DNA of 64,000 nucleotides from Acidobacteriota bacterium (GTDB taxonomy: Bacteria > Acidobacteriota > UBA6911 > RPQK01 > JAJDTT01): the NCBI GenBank assembly GCA_965209055.1, contig OZ242374.1:3488001-3552000 (forward strand), in the 5' to 3' direction. How positions within the stretch are numbered: position 1 is the first letter of the stretch; every line of letters begins with the position of its first letter. The notes beneath the pieces were generated by a model. The model was not told the origin of the DNA. It worked only from the letters and a program-made list of their open reading frames with translations, and did not search any database. Made by a program: the position numbers and the translations under genes. Below, one piece after another: positions 2-11,998 of the stretch.

Positions 2-826
2 GGGTTCCTGCCGGCGTCCCATCAGGGCGTGGCGTTCCGAAACTCGGGCGATCCCCTGCCGTACCTGTCGACTCCCTCCACCGTCTCCTCCCGGCGCCGC
101 GCCAGCGAGATGGAACTCCTGGCCCGGATGAATCGGGAACACTTGGAAATCAATCCCGGAGACAGCGCCTTGGAGGCGCGGCTCCAGTCCTACGAGTTGG
201 CCGCCCGCATGCAGATGACCATCCCCGACATCGTGGATCTGGACACGGAGCGGCCGGAAACGCGGCGGCTCTACGGCCTGGACGAGGAGAAGACGAACAG
301 CTTCGGCCGGAATTGCCTGCTGGCTCGCCGGCTGCTGGAAAAAGGTGTCCGGGTCGTTCAAGTCTGGATCGGCGGCGCCTTCGGCCGGCCTCGCATCAAC
401 TGGGACGGGCACGAGGACATCAAGGAGAATCACACCGATCAGGCCGACACCATGGATCGTCCGTTGGCCGGACTCCTGAAAGACATGAAGGAGCGGGGCA
501 TGCTGGAGGACACCCTGGTGGTCTGGTCGACGGAGTTCGGCCGGACCCCGTTCACCGAAGGGCTGGGCGCCAAGGGCCGCGACCATCACCAGCTCGCCTT
601 CACCTGCTGGCTCGCGGGCGCCGGTGTCCGGAAGGGATTCAGCTACGGCGCTTCAGACGATGTGGGCTACGACGTGGCCCGGGACCCGGTCACCATCTAC
701 GATTTTCACGCCACCATCCTTCATCTGCTGGGGCTGGACCACAAGAAGCTCACCTTTTACCACAACGGCATTCAGCGCCGCCTCACCGACGTCCACGGCC
801 ACGTGGTGCGTGGTGTATTGGCGTAG
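2..826 (+). CDS. DUF1501 family (sulfatase-like) protein, 5' end outside the window
   Basis: Frame open from the window start (GFLPASHQGVAFR); motifs SYELAARMQ, GVRVVQ, WDGH, EFGRTP, GRDH, DFHATILHLLGLDH; paralog of 15716-17188. Confidence 0.9.
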   Translation, partial: GFLPASHQGVAFRNSGDPLPYLSTPSTVSSRRRASEMELLARMNREHLEINPGDSALEARLQSYELAARMQMTIPDIVDLDTERPETRRLYGLDEEKTNSFGRNCLLARRLLEKGVRVVQVWIGGAFGRPRINWDGHEDIKENHTDQADTMDRPLAGLLKDMKERGMLEDTLVVWSTEFGRTPFTEGLGAKGRDHHQLAFTCWLAGAGVRKGFSYGASDDVGYDVARDPVTIYDFHATILHLLGLDHKKLTFYHNGIQRRLTDVHGHVVRGVLA

Positions 827-883
827 GGTCGAGTCGTCACCGCATAATTCCAGGATGTTCAGCTCCGCCATCCGGGACCCGGA

Positions 884-928
884 CTAAACCTGGGATTCCC
901 GCGCAATGCCGAGGAACGGACCGTCCAT
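884..928 (-). CDS. possible 14-aa mini-ORF (MDGPFLGIARESQV) or paralog remnant
   Basis: AGGAGGAGC directly before ATG; 13-nt exact match (914-926 vs 1239-1251) to the KDGPF segment of the 1092-1862 gene. Confidence 0.3.
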   Translation of the reverse strand: MDGPFLGIARESQV

Positions 929-951
929 GCTCCTCCTGTGAAATACGAAAC

Positions 952-1059
952 TCAGTGAACACGAACCCGAGCCAGAACTTCCGTTCGGAACACAACCATC
1001 CTGTTTCTGGTGTCCGTGGAGCCTTCACCGCCAACGTACTGGATAAGGATGGACTTCAT
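952..1059 (-). CDS. 35-aa micro-ORF MKSILIQYVGGEGSTDTRNRMVVFRTEVLARVRVH, homologous to the C-terminus of the upstream gene
   Basis: AAGGAGG 8 nt before ATG; gapless alignment to the last 32 aa of 1092-1862 (15 identities, same stop position), many synonymous differences; below the ORF-track size cutoff. Confidence 0.65.
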   Translation of the reverse strand: MKSILIQYVGGEGSTDTRNRMVVFRTEVLARVRVH

Positions 1060-1091
1060 GTCTTGTTCCTCCTTCAAATCCCTCGCTTGAC

Positions 1092-1862
1092 TCACTGGAA
1101 CCTCACCCGGATCTGAAACTCCTGTCGAAACACCACTATCTGACTGGCAGACCCGGAGGTCCCCTCACCGCCGACGTACTGGACCACCAACCGGCCCGAG
1201 GTGGGGCCTCCGTCGTAGGCGTGGCGCATCTGGACCATGAACGGACCGTCCTTGGCGTACTCGGCTCCCCCGGCTGACTTCTCGGCCCAATAGGCCAAGT
1301 GCGTTCCAAGGGCCTTGCCCCCGGACCTCAGCATCTCGAAGCCCACAACTTTATCGTGGATCGCCCACTGGAGAAGCCTGCCGTGTTTCCAGGGGCCCAT
1401 CGCGAACATCTGCTGGGCGAACTGTACAACCCGTACGGCGATCAGGCCGTTCGCAGCGTCGAACCCCAGGCTCCGGTCGCCCTGGCTCATGTTCGTGAAG
1501 ATGTTTCCGAGCATGAAGAGCTGGAGCGTGTACTGGCCAAAGAACTCCGCATCACAGTATTTGTTGCCATCAACATCCGTCTCCAGCGTATAACCAGCGT
1601 TGCATGACTCGCATTGGCCATCACTGCCCAGTGTCCCATTTTCACAAGTACCCTCACGGCCAGATTCGGCATCCATGTTTCCGTTCAGCGAGTCAACCGA
1701 CCTCACGACGGCGACGGTCTGCCAGTACATCGGGTCGTTCCCGATCACGTCAACGGCAATCGGGTCCGGGAACCTCAGTTGCGCCTCATCATAAGTTTGA
1801 CCGAACCCCAACACCCCGAACGCGAGAAACGCCGCCAAGAAAACACGACACGAAAACTTCAT
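1092..1862 (-). CDS. secreted hypothetical protein with Cys-rich internal module
   Basis: AGGAGG SD, signal peptide MKFSCRVFLAAFLAFGVLGFG-Q; CENG...CESCNAGY...YC segment. Confidence 0.8.
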   Translation of the reverse strand: MKFSCRVFLAAFLAFGVLGFGQTYDEAQLRFPDPIAVDVIGNDPMYWQTVAVVRSVDSLNGNMDAESGREGTCENGTLGSDGQCESCNAGYTLETDVDGNKYCDAEFFGQYTLQLFMLGNIFTNMSQGDRSLGFDAANGLIAVRVVQFAQQMFAMGPWKHGRLLQWAIHDKVVGFEMLRSGGKALGTHLAYWAEKSAGGAEYAKDGPFMVQMRHAYDGGPTSGRLVVQYVGGEGTSGSASQIVVFRQEFQIRVRFQ

Positions 1863-1977
1863 GACACCCTCCTACTTCAACCTTGAGGTCCTTGCTTTTT
1901 CTCTCTAACGTGCGGGTGTTCAGATCTGTGAGACCTGGCTGACGGGAAGGCAACGATGGTGGTTGGAGTTCAGGTGG

Positions 1978-3750
1978 CTACGCCGTTCGCACCTGCCAGT
2001 GCCGTGACGTGTCCTGAGCCGTCCAGAGACGTTCGTAGAGGCCTGCGGCGTGGATCAGCCGCGAGTGGGTTCCCGTCTCCACGACCCGTCCCTCCTGGAG
2101 CACCACGATCCGGTCGGCGTTGCGGACGGTAAAGAGGCGGTGAGCGATGACCAGGACTGTCCGGTCCCGGGTCAGGCGGGTGATGGCTTCCCGGATCTCC
2201 AACTCCGACTCGGTGTCCACGCTTGAGGTGGCTTCGTCCAGGATCAGGACGGGCGCGTCTTTGAGGAGGGCGCGGGCGATGGAGATCCGCTGTTTCTCGC
2301 CTCCCGAGAGGCGCGCTCCCCTCTCCCCGACCATGGTGTCGTAGCCCTGGGGCAGGGATAGGATGAATTCCTCGGCGTTGGCGGCTCGGGCGGCGTCACG
2401 GATTTCGGCCTCGGTGGCGTCGGGGTTTCCCACCAGGATGTTCTCCCGGATGGTGGCGTGGAAGAGATACACGTCCTGCATGACGTGGGCCACACTCCGG
2501 CGCAACGGTTCCAGCGCCAGATTCCGGACGTCGATCCCGCCGACCTTCACCGCTCCGAACTGCGGTTCGTAGAACCTGGGGACCAGGTTGCAGGAGGTCG
2601 TCTTGCCGGCGCCGGTGGGGCCGACCAGGGCCAGGACTTCGCCCGCTTCGGCCCGGAAACTCACCTCCCGAAGGACGGGAATCTCCGGCGCGTAGCCGAA
2701 GGTGACCCGGTCCAGCTCCACCGACCAGCGGAGGTCGCCGGGAATGGCGGCCAGGCCGGCCGCCCGCGATTCCACCGGCAGTTCCAGTAGCTCGAAGACT
2801 CGCCGCGCCGAGGCGGCCGCTTTCTGGATGACGTCGTTCAGGTTGGCCAGCCGCAACAGGGGCTGGAAGATCTGTCCCAGGTAGAGGACAAAGACCACCA
2901 GATCGGCCAGGGCCACGTCTCCTCCCAAGGCCAGGCGTCCCCCCGCGGCGACGACCAGGAGGTAGGCCAGGCCACCGGCGAATTCGACCACGCCTGCCGG
3001 GATCAGAGACCAGCGATTGGCCCTCACGATGCTGTCGCGATAACGGGCGCTGGCCTGCCGGACCCGCCGCAGCTCGGAATCTTCCCGGACGAAGGACTTG
3101 ATGACCGTGTGGCCGCCGATCCGGTCCAGGATCTCGGCCACCAGGTCGGCGCGGCGGCCCCGGGTTTTCCTCCAGGCTCGACTGGTCCGCCCCGCGAGCC
3201 GGTACACCAGCCAGGCGACCAACGGCAAGGGCAGCGTGACGATGAGGGCCAGCTCGAAGTGAATGTTGAAGAGGATCAGGAGCATGGCTGCCGGCATCAC
3301 CGCCGCCAGGAAGATCTCCGGCACCCCGTGGGCCAGAAAGTCCTCGATGACCTCCACGTCGTTGACGGTCCGGGACATGAGTGAGCCGCTGCGGCGATGC
3401 GTGTAGGCTCCGGGCGGGAGGGCCTGAACCCGGGCGTAGGTGCGGCCCAGGAGGTTGTGCAGCGTGCGGTAGGCGGCCACGTGGGAGAAGACACCGTAGC
3501 CGTAACGGAAGACCCCCCGCAGGAGAAAGAGTCCGGCCAGAGCAAGGGCCATCCAGATCAGCGTGGACCCGGAAAGACCCCCCTCCTGAAGCAACTGGAT
3601 CAGCCGTCTCAATACCAGCGGAGGGAAGAGTCCGACCACCGAGAAGAGGAGGCCGCACAGGAGGGACAGGGCCAGCAGTCTCCGGCTCTCCACTGCCAGA
3701 TGGAACAGCCGGACCATGAGGGTTCGAGTCGAGTTGCCGCTCCGGTCCAT
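1978..3750 (-). CDS. ABC transporter, fused permease + ATPase (MsbA-like half transporter)
   Basis: N-terminal TM helices; [24 protein letters not shown]; start taken at MDRSG. Confidence 0.92.
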
Positions 3751-3787
3751 CCGTGTCCCCGTTGCCACGTCCGGACCCACAGGAAGG

Positions 3788-5008
3788 CTACTCGTAGTGG
3801 AGCGCTTCGATGGGGTCCAGTTGTGCTGCCTTGTGGGCCGGATAATATCCGAAAAAGACCCCGATGGCAGCCGAGAAGAAGATGGAGACCGCGATGGCGT
3901 TGGGGGAGATCTGGGTCGGCCATCCCATGCCCTGGGAGACGAGGAAGGATCCACCGATCCCCATTCCAAGGCCGATCAAGCCGCCCAACAGGCAGAGCAC
4001 GATGGATTCGGACAGGAACTGGACTCTCACGTGTCCGGGCCGGGCTCCGATGGCCATGCGAATGCCGATCTCCCGGGTCCGTTCGGTCACCGAGACCAGC
4101 ATGATGTTCATGATGCCGATGCCCCCCACCAGGAGGGAGACGGCGGCGATGCTGGCCAACAGGCTGGTCATGACCCGGTTGGTGGCTTCGGCCGCTTCCG
4201 CGAACTCGCTCAGATTCCGAACCCGGAAATCGTCGGCCTGATCCCGACCCAGATTGTGGCGCTGGCGCAGGAGCGCGCTGATCTGCTCCTGGGCCGCGAA
4301 GCTCGCGCGGGCGCTCACGGCGGAGATCAGGCCGGACTGGACGTAGAGGACCCCTCCCTGGAACTTCTTCTGGACCGTGGTGTAGGGAACGATGATGGTG
4401 TCGTCCTGATCCCGTCCCCAGTTGTTGGCGCCCTTCTTCTTGAGGACTCCCAGCACCTGGAACGGGAGGTTCTTGACCCGGATCGTCTGGCCCACCGGGT
4501 CGCCTCCGCCGAAGAGCTCGTCCACGACGGTCTGGCCCAGGACGGCGACTCGAGCTGCCGTCTTCACGTGACTCTCTTCAAAGAATTCACCTTGGGTGAG
4601 GGGCCAGTTGCGCAGCAGCTGGTATTGCTCGTTGTACCCTTCGATGCGAGTGTTCCAGTTCTGGTTGCCGAACACGACCTGGGCCATGGTGGAAGCGCTG
4701 GGGCTCACGGCCTGTACCGTGGGAACCTCTTGAAGGATAGCCTCGAAGTCGGCGGCGGTGAGGGTGTTTTGAGTTCCCGATCCGCTCCGGATTCCCCACG
4801 ACCGGCGGCTGCCGGCCCGGATCCAGAGGGTATTGGTCCCCATGGCGGCGATCTCCTCCTGCACCTGCCGCTGGGCCCCCTGACCCAGGCTGACCATGGT
4901 GATGACGGCGGCGACGCCGATGATGATCCCCAGCATGGTGAGAATGGAGCGGATCATGTTCCGGCCCAAGGACTTGAGGGAGATTTTCAAGATCATCCAG
5001 AAACCCAT
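3788..5008 (-). CDS. macB: MacB-type ABC permease
   Basis: RSILTMLGIIIGVAAVI; GGIGIMNIMLVSVTERTREIGIRMAIGA; PAHKAAQLDPIEALHYE. Confidence 0.92.
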   Translation of the reverse strand: MGFWMILKISLKSLGRNMIRSILTMLGIIIGVAAVITMVSLGQGAQRQVQEEIAAMGTNTLWIRAGSRRSWGIRSGSGTQNTLTAADFEAILQEVPTVQAVSPSASTMAQVVFGNQNWNTRIEGYNEQYQLLRNWPLTQGEFFEESHVKTAARVAVLGQTVVDELFGGGDPVGQTIRVKNLPFQVLGVLKKKGANNWGRDQDDTIIVPYTTVQKKFQGGVLYVQSGLISAVSARASFAAQEQISALLRQRHNLGRDQADDFRVRNLSEFAEAAEATNRVMTSLLASIAAVSLLVGGIGIMNIMLVSVTERTREIGIRMAIGARPGHVRVQFLSESIVLCLLGGLIGLGMGIGGSFLVSQGMGWPTQISPNAIAVSIFFSAAIGVFFGYYPAHKAAQLDPIEALHYE

Positions 5009-7569: not shown

Positions 7570-9366
7570 TCAGCGCCCTTCGGAGGTCCCGGATCCGGAC
7601 TGGACAAGGGAGACTTCCACGTAGCGGACGCCCACCGGTTTGTCGCCCCTGTGAAGCACGGCCTGCAGGCGAGTTTCACCCTCATCCAGCAGGACCTGGT
7701 CAAACGTGACTTCGGATGTCTCCGGGTCGAAGGGTTGCATTCTTCGGACCTGTTGAAGCCTCAACTCGGCATTTCCACCACCGGATGCCGGACCGAAGAG
7801 GAACCGGATCCGATAGGCGCCCGCGCGATGGACCGTGATTTCCCAAAACCCCAGGTCGGTGTCTCCCCATCCGTCGGGACCCACCATGCGCCAGTCCTGG
7901 CGAGTGAGGATGACGGGGTCATCGTGGACCGTCCCCACCGCGATCCGGGGAGGAGCGTAGCCTCGAGAGGAGGAAACGTCCTGGAGCCAGTCCGCATAGG
8001 CGGAGCGAAGCCGCCCCACCACCTCGGGACGTCCGCCTGAAATATCCCGTTGTTCTCCCGGGTCGGCCTCCAGATCGTAGAGTTCCAGGGGATAGTCCTC
8101 GAATGTCTCGCCGGCGGGCAGACCGCGCGTGGCGAAGGCCACCGGCTGGACCAGCTTGTACCGCTGCTCGATGGCGGCGAAGTGGCGGAAGGGTTGGGGC
8201 TCGTTCCCCCGGTGGGACTGGATGAAGAGGGTCCGGTCGCCGGGATCCTGGCCGGCGCCGCCGAGCCGGGACATGAGGCTGACTCCGTCGAAGGCAACCC
8301 CGTCGGGAAACGCGATTCCGGCCGCCTCCAGCAGCGTGGGCATCAGGTCGATGTGGGCGGCGATGCGGCCGTCCGTGCCCGGCTCGAGCCGTCCCGGCCA
8401 GCGGAGCAGAAACGGCACCCGGATTCCCCCATCGTAGACGGTCCCCTTGAGTCCTCTGAGTCCGGCGGTGTACCGGCGCGTGGTGGCTCCGTTGTCGGTC
8501 ATGAAGATGAGGATCGTGTTTTTCTCCAGTTCCATCCGCTTCAGGCCGTCCAACAGACGGCCCACGTTGTCGTCGATGTTGGTGATCATGCCGTAGATGC
8601 GGGCATCCTTGTCCTCCAGTCCGGTCTCCAGGTAGGACTGGCGGTAGGGTTCGGGTACGTCGTAGGGGGAATGAGGCGCGTTGGTGGGGATGTAGACGAA
8701 GAAGGGGCTCTCCCGATTCTCCTCGATGAACTCCAGCGCCTCCCGGAAGAAGATGTCGGTGCAGTAGCCCGGGTACGGCTTGGCCTTCCCGTTGTGCTGC
8801 AGGATGGGGTCGAAATAGGAGGTTTCGGGCGGGTCGGAAGGCTGGCCGATGCCGCCGCCCTTGTGGACCACCGACTCCTGGAAGCCCTGGTCCATGGCCC
8901 GGAGTGGATAGTTGTCCCCCAGGTGCCACTTTCCGAAGATCCCGGTCCGGTAGCCCGCCTCCGAGAGAGTCTCGGCCAGGGTGACCTCGTCCGAGTGCAT
9001 CATGGCCCGTCCCACGTAGGTGTCCACCACGCCGGTCCGGTAGTTGTAGCGGCCGGTCATGAGGCTGGCCCGGGTGGGAGCGCAGACGGGAGAGACGTAG
9101 AACCGGGTCAGCTCCACGCTCTCGGTGGCCAGGCGGTCCAGGTGGGGCGTGCGGAGGACATCGTCCCCATGGCTTCCCAACTGGGCCCAGCCCTGGTCGT
9201 CGGTGATGACGAGAATGATGTTGGGCCGTTCCGCTTCCTGAGCCGGAGGCGGTGAACATCCGAGAATCCAACAGCACAACAGAAGCAGCAGCCCGGATCG
9301 GGTGCCGGCCCCGCGGGGGTGCCGGCCGGCTGTGGAGGCGAGTGGAGAATCAACTGTAGTGGACAT
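7570..9366 (-). CDS. arylsulfatase (formylglycine-dependent), probable lipoprotein
   Basis: PNIILVITDDQG, CAPTRASLMTGRY (CxPxR), GKWHLG; ILGC lipobox. Confidence 0.93.
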   Translation of the reverse strand: MSTTVDSPLASTAGRHPRGAGTRSGLLLLLCCWILGCSPPPAQEAERPNIILVITDDQGWAQLGSHGDDVLRTPHLDRLATESVELTRFYVSPVCAPTRASLMTGRYNYRTGVVDTYVGRAMMHSDEVTLAETLSEAGYRTGIFGKWHLGDNYPLRAMDQGFQESVVHKGGGIGQPSDPPETSYFDPILQHNGKAKPYPGYCTDIFFREALEFIEENRESPFFVYIPTNAPHSPYDVPEPYRQSYLETGLEDKDARIYGMITNIDDNVGRLLDGLKRMELEKNTILIFMTDNGATTRRYTAGLRGLKGTVYDGGIRVPFLLRWPGRLEPGTDGRIAAHIDLMPTLLEAAGIAFPDGVAFDGVSLMSRLGGAGQDPGDRTLFIQSHRGNEPQPFRHFAAIEQRYKLVQPVAFATRGLPAGETFEDYPLELYDLEADPGEQRDISGGRPEVVGRLRSAYADWLQDVSSSRGYAPPRIAVGTVHDDPVILTRQDWRMVGPDGWGDTDLGFWEITVHRAGAYRIRFLFGPASGGGNAELRLQQVRRMQPFDPETSEVTFDQVLLDEGETRLQAVLHRGDKPVGVRYVEVSLVQSGSGTSEGR

Positions 9367-11104: not shown

Positions 11105-11998
11105 GTGCGTCTCGTCTTCGGTATTTCATTGCTGTCGTTTCTGGTGGGGACCCAGCCCGAGTCCGCCCGGGAGCTGACGGAGAAATCGATCCGGGAACTG
11201 CGGCTGATGGTGGTGGAGTTCATCAACCAGGATCGGCTAAAGGCCTCGGCCCGGCCAGTGGTGTATTCCGAACCCCTCTCCCTGCTGGCCGACGAGCATT
11301 GCCGGGAGATGCTGCGGGAAGGCTACACCAGCCACTGGAACCGGGCCGGCTGGAAGCCATACATGCGCTATTCCCAGGGCGGGGTCACCGATCATACCTC
11401 CGAAAACATCGCCAGCATGAACAGCACCGGCTTCGAGGTGAGCTTCGACTCCGTCAAGGCCGAATTGACCGCGCGCCACGAGAGCCTCATCGGTGAGGAA
11501 CCGCCGTACGACCAGCACCGCCAAAACATCCTGGACCCTCACCATACCCATGTCGGAATCGGGGTGGCCTACAGCAGGGCGGGCCTGCGGATGATCCAGA
11601 TCTTCGCCCGGCGGTACGTGAGCCTGGAGCCCATTCCCGCAAGGCAGGGACCCTCCGCCAGCGTTCAACTGAAGGGCAAGTTGCTCGTGCCCGGATACGA
11701 TCTCCAGGCGATCTCCGTCTTCTACGAACCCCTGCCGGAAGAGATGTCACTGGCGCAGTTGATGGGGACGTATTCCTATGCTTTGCCCGCTGACGAGAAG
11801 ATCTACAGGACCCGTCTGCCCTCGATCATGCGCTACGCCGACGGCACCCGGGGATCGGTGGACGTCCGGGGCCGGTCCTTCTCCCAGACCATCTCCTTCC
11901 CCTCCCGGAAAGGGGTCTACACCCTGGTCGTCTGGCTCGAGAAAGAAAACGAGGTTCGGGGCTTCACGGCCACCAACGCCACCGTCTTCGTGGAGTGA
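11105..11998 (+). CDS. CAP/SCP domain protein, secreted
   Basis: INQDR, SHWN...PYMRY, ENIA, HRQNILDPHHTHVGIGV. Confidence 0.85.
   Translation: MRLVFGISLLSFLVGTQPESARELTEKSIRELRLMVVEFINQDRLKASARPVVYSEPLSLLADEHCREMLREGYTSHWNRAGWKPYMRYSQGGVTDHTSENIASMNSTGFEVSFDSVKAELTARHESLIGEEPPYDQHRQNILDPHHTHVGIGVAYSRAGLRMIQIFARRYVSLEPIPARQGPSASVQLKGKLLVPGYDLQAISVFYEPLPEEMSLAQLMGTYSYALPADEKIYRTRLPSIMRYADGTRGSVDVRGRSFSQTISFPSRKGVYTLVVWLEKENEVRGFTATNATVFVE

Follow-up and report, generated by a model that had tools for sequence, protein, structure and literature searches.

A 35-codon reading frame behind an orphan acidobacterial gene resembles both the start region and the tail of that gene

Introduction

Why should a reading frame of 35 codons, standing directly behind an orphan gene, resemble the last 32 codons of that gene? 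The question is raised by a 64,000-nt stretch of DNA (positions 3,488,001 to 3,552,000 of contig OZ242374.1, assembly GCA_965209055.1), here called the window, from the genome of a sponge-associated member of the Acidobacteriota; sequencing runs labelled sponge metagenome contain the same stretch. The gene, which we term the parent, and the short open reading frame (ORF) behind it, the micro-ORF, lie near the beginning of the window, and their positions are collected in Table 1 together with those of the other features discussed. The micro-ORF copies the head of the parent, that is its start region and Met-Lys, besides its tail, and it is this new point that shapes our answer. We favour, with a probability of about 0.55, the explanation that the micro-ORF is a collapsed tandem paralog that is probably still translated and has no maintained function.

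Results and discussion

The tail of the parent is repeated behind its stop codon

The micro-ORF is read from the same strand as the parent, and 32 nt separate the parent stop codon (1094-1092) from its ATG (1059-1057). A Shine-Dalgarno (SD) sequence, AAGGAGG, lies at 1074-1068, 8 nt ahead of the ATG. The translation is MKSILIQYVGGEGSTDTRNRMVVFRTEVLARVRVH, 35 aa in length. Codons 4-35 align ungapped to parent codons 225-256, with 15 of the 32 residues identical and the TGA in the same register, and there are no insertions or deletions across the 33 codons. At the nucleotide level 60 of 99 positions agree (20, 26 and 14 of 33 by codon position), the best-conserved block encodes QYVGGEG, and the longest exact run shared by the two is 10 nt. 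Eight of the 15 identical residues are encoded by different codons. The initial annotation had described both the ungapped match with its common stop and SD and the eight differently encoded residues, and these were reproduced by alignment and in the codon table respectively. It had also called the micro-ORF hidden, which is not the case: gene callers do predict it, and a protein of 35 aa that is 94% identical (P0005) is present in a collection of 5.8 billion proteins.

The eight residues that follow GGEG (STDTRNRM) form a loop in which, as pointed out at the outset, every position differs from the parent. This holds for comparison with this particular parent. The one homologue known, P0002, departs from this parent at three positions in the last 32 aa, all of them in the loop, and at all three the micro-ORF carries the P0002 residue (T, N and M), so that its identity to P0002 rises to 18/32. 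The agreement implies that the micro-ORF keeps ancestral states and descends from an ancestral tail, and that only five of the eight loop residues have changed relative to the likely ancestor.

How far does this similarity exceed what the genome would offer anyway? When the entire 6,077,182-bp genome is searched in six frames with the parent, the micro-ORF is the sole other match (E = 0.00435), and a two-sequence profile returns it at E = 7.4e-5. For an empirical null we took 20,801 stop-to-stop frames (at least 120 aa) and compared the C-terminal 40 aa of each with the three-frame translation of its own 400 nt downstream. The score of 82 for micro-ORF and parent takes rank 44 of 20,801. Scores of 50 or more are attained by just 198 frames, and among the top 70, which were inspected, the majority of those placed higher prove to be intergenic or repeat DNA translated in spurious frames. 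At the level of DNA the local score of 35 lies above all 300 shuffles.

The null set brought a separate observation. Many near-identical short repeats in the genome (contig C1, e.g. 1163647-1164679, 1191448-1192914 and 5837738-5838145) mimic C-terminal copies in spurious frames, and seem to form a dispersed family of intergenic repeats.

The start region of the micro-ORF matches that of the parent

Upstream of its tail homology the micro-ORF resembles a second part of the parent. From -18 to +7 relative to the ATG (TTGAAG GAGGAACAAGAC ATGAAGT in the micro-ORF, TTGAAG TAGGAGGGTGTC ATGAAGT in the parent) the two are identical at 19 of 25 positions without a gap, and this pair is the longest direct repeat of the region. 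We compared the micro-ORF start with 997 genomic sites of the form GGAGG-N4-10-ATG that open ORFs of at least 100 aa. The parent is the best match, ranking first of the 997 with the next sites scoring 18 and 17, and it is also first among 1,169 ATGAAG starts with ORFs of at least 100 aa. The hexamer TTGAAG at -18 to -13 occurs in one of the 997 SD-bearing starts. A plain shuffle test on the 25-nt match is not significant (score 20, null median 19); the match carries weight because it stands at the same distance from both start codons. As a measure of the strength of the site itself, there are 141 occurrences of AAGGAGG-N5-9-ATG in the genome, of which 97 open ORFs of at least 100 aa.

A further fragment derived from the parent lies downstream of the micro-ORF, out of order relative to the parent, which suggests more than one rearrangement. 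Its local score of 27 corresponds to the 99th percentile of the best scores in 300 shuffles. A parent AAG has become ATG in this fragment, giving a 14-codon ORF, MDGPFLGIARESQV (885-929, minus strand), behind AGGAGG. Other echoes in the DNA are at shuffle level: 933-946 with 1119-1133 and 853-865 with 1914-1926 score 18 and 16, where the null median is 19.

Two other features of the junction between parent and micro-ORF deserve mention. A GTG at 1093-1095 overlaps the parent stop codon (GTGA) and opens the frame of the micro-ORF to give a 47-aa form, with GAGG 5 nt upstream; translational coupling by this route is conceivable. A fusion by -1 frameshift was considered, as the micro-ORF frame is open from 1164 and is -1 to that of the parent. 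It was rejected: no slippery heptamer is seen by eye, and P0002 ends at the last residue of the parent.

Constraint in the past and the present state of the frame

Pairwise comparison of the micro-ORF with the parent tail by NG86 gives a non-synonymous distance (dN) of 0.43 and a synonymous distance (dS) of 1.47, a ratio of 0.29. Identity is 13/32 at third codon positions (8.8 expected by chance) and 25/32 at second positions (8.9 expected). The view that the copy is not a fresh duplication is borne out by the high dS and by third positions so close to the chance level. The stronger claim of protein-level selection survives in part. We simulated two lineages departing from the parent tail, one accepting synonymous changes only and the other evolving neutrally, with 20,000 runs per setting. 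At about 39 differences the neutral copy retained at least 15 identities in 25% of runs; it reached the observed BLOSUM score in 1.1% (P = 0.011), and it was open, with stop kept and at least 15 identities, in 3.1% (P = 0.031). Pure neutral decay of the micro-ORF thus fits poorly, and together with the dN/dS ratio this points to constraint in the past. The eight synonymous pairs, from which selection had been read originally, prove nothing of the kind for the micro-ORF by themselves, because the parent lineage supplies synonymous changes anyway. The constraint may have acted on the 35-aa peptide, or on a full-length paralog before a deletion.

At present the micro-ORF has no frameshift, internal stop or lost start; it is open up to the retained stop codon and preceded by a perfect SD. 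Strain variation could be followed in four of 20 sequencing runs, which contain near-identical strains or partial contigs. One contig (X6, 5,607 nt) spans the locus, with six differences from our genome in 1,301 nt. Two fall in the micro-ORF, are both non-synonymous (I6V and H35N) and match P0005; the parent differs by a single amino acid (K204R) and one synonymous change. Changes in 2 of 35 residues against 1 of 256 correspond to a rate about 15 times that of the parent (Fisher p = 0.039). K204R is the sole difference in the parent tail region in the four runs, and no recombinant joints are seen there in the contigs, from which rare variants are dropped.

The GC content at third positions (GC3) is 0.63 in the micro-ORF, 0.75 in the parent and 0.85-0.86 in the neighbouring genes, and the codon adaptation of the micro-ORF is no better than that of the parent tail and far below that of the neighbours. 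Among proteins of 25-83 aa in the 5.8-billion-protein collection the only counterpart of the micro-ORF is its own strain variant P0005 (1/1 candidates). A search for shorter proteins with residues 170-225 of P0002 was blank, yet it also missed P0005, which shares words there. Strain changes, GC3 and the missing counterpart lean towards relaxed constraint now, on small numbers.

The parent gene and its family

The parent protein has a signal-peptide-like N-terminus (MKFSCR followed by 14 hydrophobic residues), a Cys-rich insert at about residues 61-108 and a conserved C-terminal domain at 109-256. It is probably exported by the Sec pathway. The earlier description of the protein as secreted agrees with this N-terminus, which was read by eye. 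The micro-ORF peptide, unlike the parent, has no signal peptide.

No family had been recognised in the parent, and a Pfam scan was likewise blank, with zero families for parent, micro-ORF or P0002. A query of the ESM Atlas with parent residues 105-256 gave nothing usable. The AF2 model of the parent is poor (mean pLDDT 49), too poor for a fold search; it places strands at 221-229 and 243-252, so that in this low-confidence model the last 32 residues may form a strand-loop-strand.

The family is very small. The parent (P0001) and P0002 (225 aa; 74% identity overall, 84% over aligned columns) are its sole known members, being two of 837 candidates of 140-448 aa in the 5.8-billion-protein collection, and HMMER found no further member among 1.84 billion representatives. 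The extra HMMER matches are two weak ones to parent residues 13-88 (window ~1599-1826), both NHL-repeat proteins: this part of the parent weakly resembles the NHL-repeat/teneurin-NHL proteins P0003 and P0004 (E = 4.5e-7 and 1.9e-4), and a motif within it, PIAVDVIGNDPMYW, is similar to one NHL blade. P0002 lacks the Cys-rich residues 61-108 and has a short acidic linker in place of the four-Cys stretch of the parent (window 1539-1682), which suggests that the parent has a swappable insert between a conserved N-terminal part and the C-terminal domain. There is also a direct repeat inside the parent (1179-1196 with 1230-1247, 14/18 nt, GRLVVQ and GPFMVQ), from which its C-terminal sheet may consist of repeated strand units.

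No parent-related DNA was found among 31 genome-contig stretches or 48 metagenome-contig stretches matched by pattern. Among the genomes of 41 relatives the parent was found in our genome alone, apart from two weak N-terminal matches, and a search of the whole order gave it in one of 76 genomes.

A probable collapsed tandem paralog

In the micro-ORF head and tail of the parent are kept and the middle is missing, as would be expected after an in-frame internal deletion in a tandem copy. We propose that a copy of the full unit, comprising ribosome-binding region, start, coding region and stop, once lay directly downstream of the parent. This copy would have diverged to about 39% nucleotide difference with its protein still constrained, and would then have lost approximately codons 4-224 in frame. 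What was left would be a start region of the parent type (TTGAAG..GGAGG..ATG AAG) joined to the final 32 codons with their stop. With a gap of 32 nt, no predicted terminator between and a consensus SD, the micro-ORF is probably co-transcribed with the parent and translated into the 35-aa peptide; translation is likely, to judge from these signals, if the parent is transcribed. Having no signal-peptide-like N-terminus, the peptide would stay in the cytoplasm. On this scheme the micro-ORF would have come about incidentally, as duplication and deletion went on in a fast-turnover island, and its function would be absent or at most nascent. The initial annotation had offered three readings. A paralog collapsed by internal deletion is strengthened by the finding of the head (19/25) with the tail, while the free peptide gained no support and the alternative C-terminal cassette fails the tests described below.

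Several observations weigh against a collapsed paralog without function. The intact frame, the consensus SD at good spacing, the kept stop and the absence of indels resemble a maintained gene; if function is lacking, the intact frame requires that the deletion was fairly recent, or that it was in frame by luck (1 in 3). The head match leads its runner-up by a single position (19 against 18), and its SD, ATG and AAG are typical among strong start sites. The counts of strain changes are tiny (2 and 1), and the GC3 of the micro-ORF is calculated from just 35 codons. No conserved counterpart of the micro-ORF was found in the genomes and the protein collection searched, and no full-length second copy among the 837 candidates or the 1.84 billion representatives, so that the full-length intermediate is known by inference only.

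Other explanations

The micro-ORF might instead be a functional micro-protein maintained by selection, a 35-aa strand-loop-strand that mimics the C-terminal hairpin of the parent and acts on it in a dominant-negative or modulating manner. We think this possible but unlikely. The intact ORF, with an SD at a spacing that more often than not (97/141) opens a substantial gene, and the prediction by gene callers are in its favour. So too are the 33 codons free of indels with the stop kept, the poor fit of neutral decay and the dN/dS of 0.29; moreover the strands are conserved and the loop variable, which is the same pattern as between P0001 and P0002. There is a bacterial precedent in AcnSP (PMC7336809; PMC11848123). 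On the other side, a signal peptide is missing from the micro-ORF product, whereas the parent appears to be a Sec substrate, so that an encounter would be limited to the time before export. The two strain changes are both non-synonymous, with the protein-level rate of change well above that of the parent, GC3 and codon adaptation are no better than in the parent tail, and the strain variant is the sole counterpart in the collection. The past constraint is explained equally well by time spent as part of a full-length paralog.

A rather improbable version combines the two explanations: a free beta-hairpin would have arisen by head-to-tail collapse of the paralog and then been selectively maintained, pairing with the sheet of the parent before export, or with the partner of the parent. 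Such a hairpin, were this version correct, would tune how an orphan secreted protein of a sponge symbiont folds, oligomerises or is exported.

Less probable again is a duplication of the 3' end alone, to which a start and an SD were added de novo, so that a full-length second copy never existed. The homology to the interior of the parent ends exactly at codon 225, no full-length paralog was found, and GGAGG-like strings evolve easily from Gly-Gly codons. All this would suit such an origin, but the start region is the parent's own (19/25, first of 997, with TTGAAG equally far from the ATG), which a de novo origin does not predict.

We regard an alternative C-terminal cassette as very improbable. 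Here recombination between QYVGGEG blocks would swap the loop and last strand of the parent, in the manner of pilS/vls or a shufflon. The arrangement of conserved block, variable eight-residue loop and conserved block in direct orientation invites the idea, as does the near-identity of the QYVGGEG block (20/22 nt), at which, by our reading of the sequence, a crossover would yield an in-frame hybrid. However, no exact match exceeds 10 nt, and about 13 of 18 positions agree in the 3' flank. Identity of that extent is too little for RecA-type exchange. Furthermore, the putative cassette has its own SD and ATG and is present as a single copy plus a 16-nt scrap, not as an array; Pfam finds a recombinase in none of the seven upstream ORFs scanned; and neither loop swaps nor joints are present in the spanning contig X6 or the partial contigs. 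A crossover between direct repeats would in any case delete the donor, so there could be no cycling.

Chance likeness between a random short ORF and the adjoining gene could appeal to the mere 32 aligned residues and to a GC-rich region in which open frames are common, but it is effectively refuted by the genome-wide E values for a match that directly adjoins the parent, by its rank in a null whose bulk scores below 50, by the DNA score above all shuffles and by agreement with P0002 at all three sites where P0001 differs.

Comparison with known systems

AcnSP of Synechocystis sp. PCC 6803 is a 44-aa copy of the N-terminus of aconitase that changes the kinetics of the enzyme (PMC7336809; PMC11848123). 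AcnSP and the micro-ORF are both bacterial small ORFs with a few dozen codons; each repeats one end of a larger gene of its own genome and has its own start. The differences are considerable. AcnSP is an N-terminal copy, lies on a plasmid away from its parent acnB and is near-identical to it, with 4 divergent positions in 38, and its expression and its effect on aconitase kinetics have been demonstrated. The micro-ORF combines a C-terminal copy with the start region, adjoins its parent, is 47% identical with synonymous sites saturated, and is known from sequence alone.

The locus has much in common with the remnants of tandem duplicates, in that the orientation is the same, the copies are adjacent, the ends of the parent are kept while the middle is missing, there are scraps out of order, and the segment varies between strains. 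A typical remnant has frameshifts or stops and no working start, whereas the micro-ORF has an intact frame, a consensus SD and signs of past constraint.

Eukaryotic microProteins (miPs) of the LITTLE ZIPPER or Id type are small proteins homologous to the interaction element of a larger protein, which they could titrate. The micro-ORF would share this concept by analogy; here, however, export is probable for the parent but not for the peptide, the family is a bacterial orphan with two known members, and an interaction is hypothetical. Silent C-terminal cassettes and orphan C-terminal modules are known from pilS, vls, the R64 shufflon and orphan CdiA-CT. Like these, the locus has a full-length gene and, behind it, part of the 3' end again, in which a variable stretch is flanked by conserved blocks. 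In contrast to them, there is just one copy, which has an SD and start of its own; flank identity is too low, neither a recombinase nor an immunity gene is present, and no variation is seen at the expression site.

A limited word-based search of the literature found no report of a micro-ORF formed by a paralog collapsed to head plus tail. If our explanation is true, the locus is a snapshot of a translatable micro-ORF arising by collapse of a diverged tandem paralog to its start region and last structural element, an origin that is neither de novo nor through copying of a single gene end. Annotation would class head-plus-tail mini-genes of this sort as orphan small proteins, by which surveys of small-protein families could be misled. 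Parent-targeting regulators like AcnSP could also plausibly evolve from them. Should the hairpin prove to be maintained, it would be a second documented route to bacterial regulatory small proteins after end duplication of the AcnSP type. On present evidence the micro-ORF is a modest curiosity.

The locus and its surroundings

The gene pair lies in a variable segment between the conserved ABC exporter gene and the DUF1501 gene (Table 1). The upstream ABC exporter has orthologues at 92-96% identity in all eight same-genus genomes examined. Neither parent nor micro-ORF is present in the 1.5 kb behind the exporter at any of the eight loci, so the arrangement of gene plus micro-ORF is not one that these relatives share. 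Homology to our genome stops a few nucleotides past the exporter stop codon (about 38-40 nt into a 1,530-nt piece that starts inside the exporter gene), and it resumes inside the 3' end of the DUF1501 gene in one of the eight genomes alone (G003); the others have unrelated ORFs at this site. The GC content of the gene pair is 0.59 and 0.53, compared with 0.65-0.67 in its neighbours. The site behind the conserved exporter looks like a turnover hotspot, and the locus would mark a place of fast turnover in this sponge-associated genus.

Table 1. Features of the locus, with positions in the window
Feature	Position	Strand	Basis and remarks
Parent orphan gene	1092..1862	-	256-aa ORF
Last 32 codons of parent plus stop, the segment copied in the micro-ORF	1092..1190	-	Alignment
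Micro-ORF, 35 codons plus TGA	952..1059	-	ORF list, alignment, whole-genome search; also called as P0005
Best-conserved block, codons for QYVGGEG	1022..1043	-	20/22 nt identical to parent 1162-1183 (direct-repeat pair D2)
Translation-initiation region of parent, TTGAAG-TAGGAGG-GTGTC-ATGAAGT (-18..+7)	1856..1880	-	Direct-repeat pair D1, local alignment
Translation-initiation region of micro-ORF, TTGAAG-GAGGAACAAGAC-ATGAAGT, including SD AAGGAGG at 1068-1074	1053..1077	-	D1, local alignment
Second parent-derived fragment	914..929	-	15/16 nt identical to parent 1239-1254 (codons K204-F208); D6
Variable segment of ~1.17 kb with parent, micro-ORF and fragment	808..1972	.	blastn against eight same-genus loci
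Upstream flank: ABC exporter (ABC_membrane and ABC_tran), 115 nt ahead of parent	1978..3747	-	Pfam
Downstream flank: 3' part of convergent DUF1501 gene	2..826	+	Pfam PF07394, E = 9.8e-102

The 1.5 kb behind the exporter orthologue holds different DNA in each of the eight same-genus genomes (L007-L014). One of these stretches (L008) has an ORF beginning MANAKVFAFINYKGGVAKTT that is ParA-like by eye, and another (L013) an ORF of 374 aa that is transposase-like by eye. A 28-residue fragment of DUF1501 occurs in L010 and L011, and L014 alone has the DUF1501 gene adjacent.

An Rfam scan of 600-2100 at E<=1 gave zero matches, the predicted RNA fold of 827-1100 on the minus strand has z = -0.16, and neither a sigma-70-like promoter nor an intrinsic terminator came out of a consensus scan of 700-2100.

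The genes upstream, on the same strand, comprise an HlyD-type fusion protein, a MacB-type ATPase and permease, and the ABC exporter. Double-glycine leaders are about 15-25 aa long and end in GG, and the ABC exporters that neighbour such leader peptides carry a C39 peptidase domain. A leader peptide of this kind was considered for the micro-ORF and rejected, as its GG stands at residues 10-11 only and the exporter (ORF 1981-3969) has no C39 domain at E<=1e-5. Near the efflux genes there are also an ORF with a CAP/cysteine-rich secretory protein domain (11105-11998, plus strand) and a sulfatase ORF (7570-9366, minus strand).

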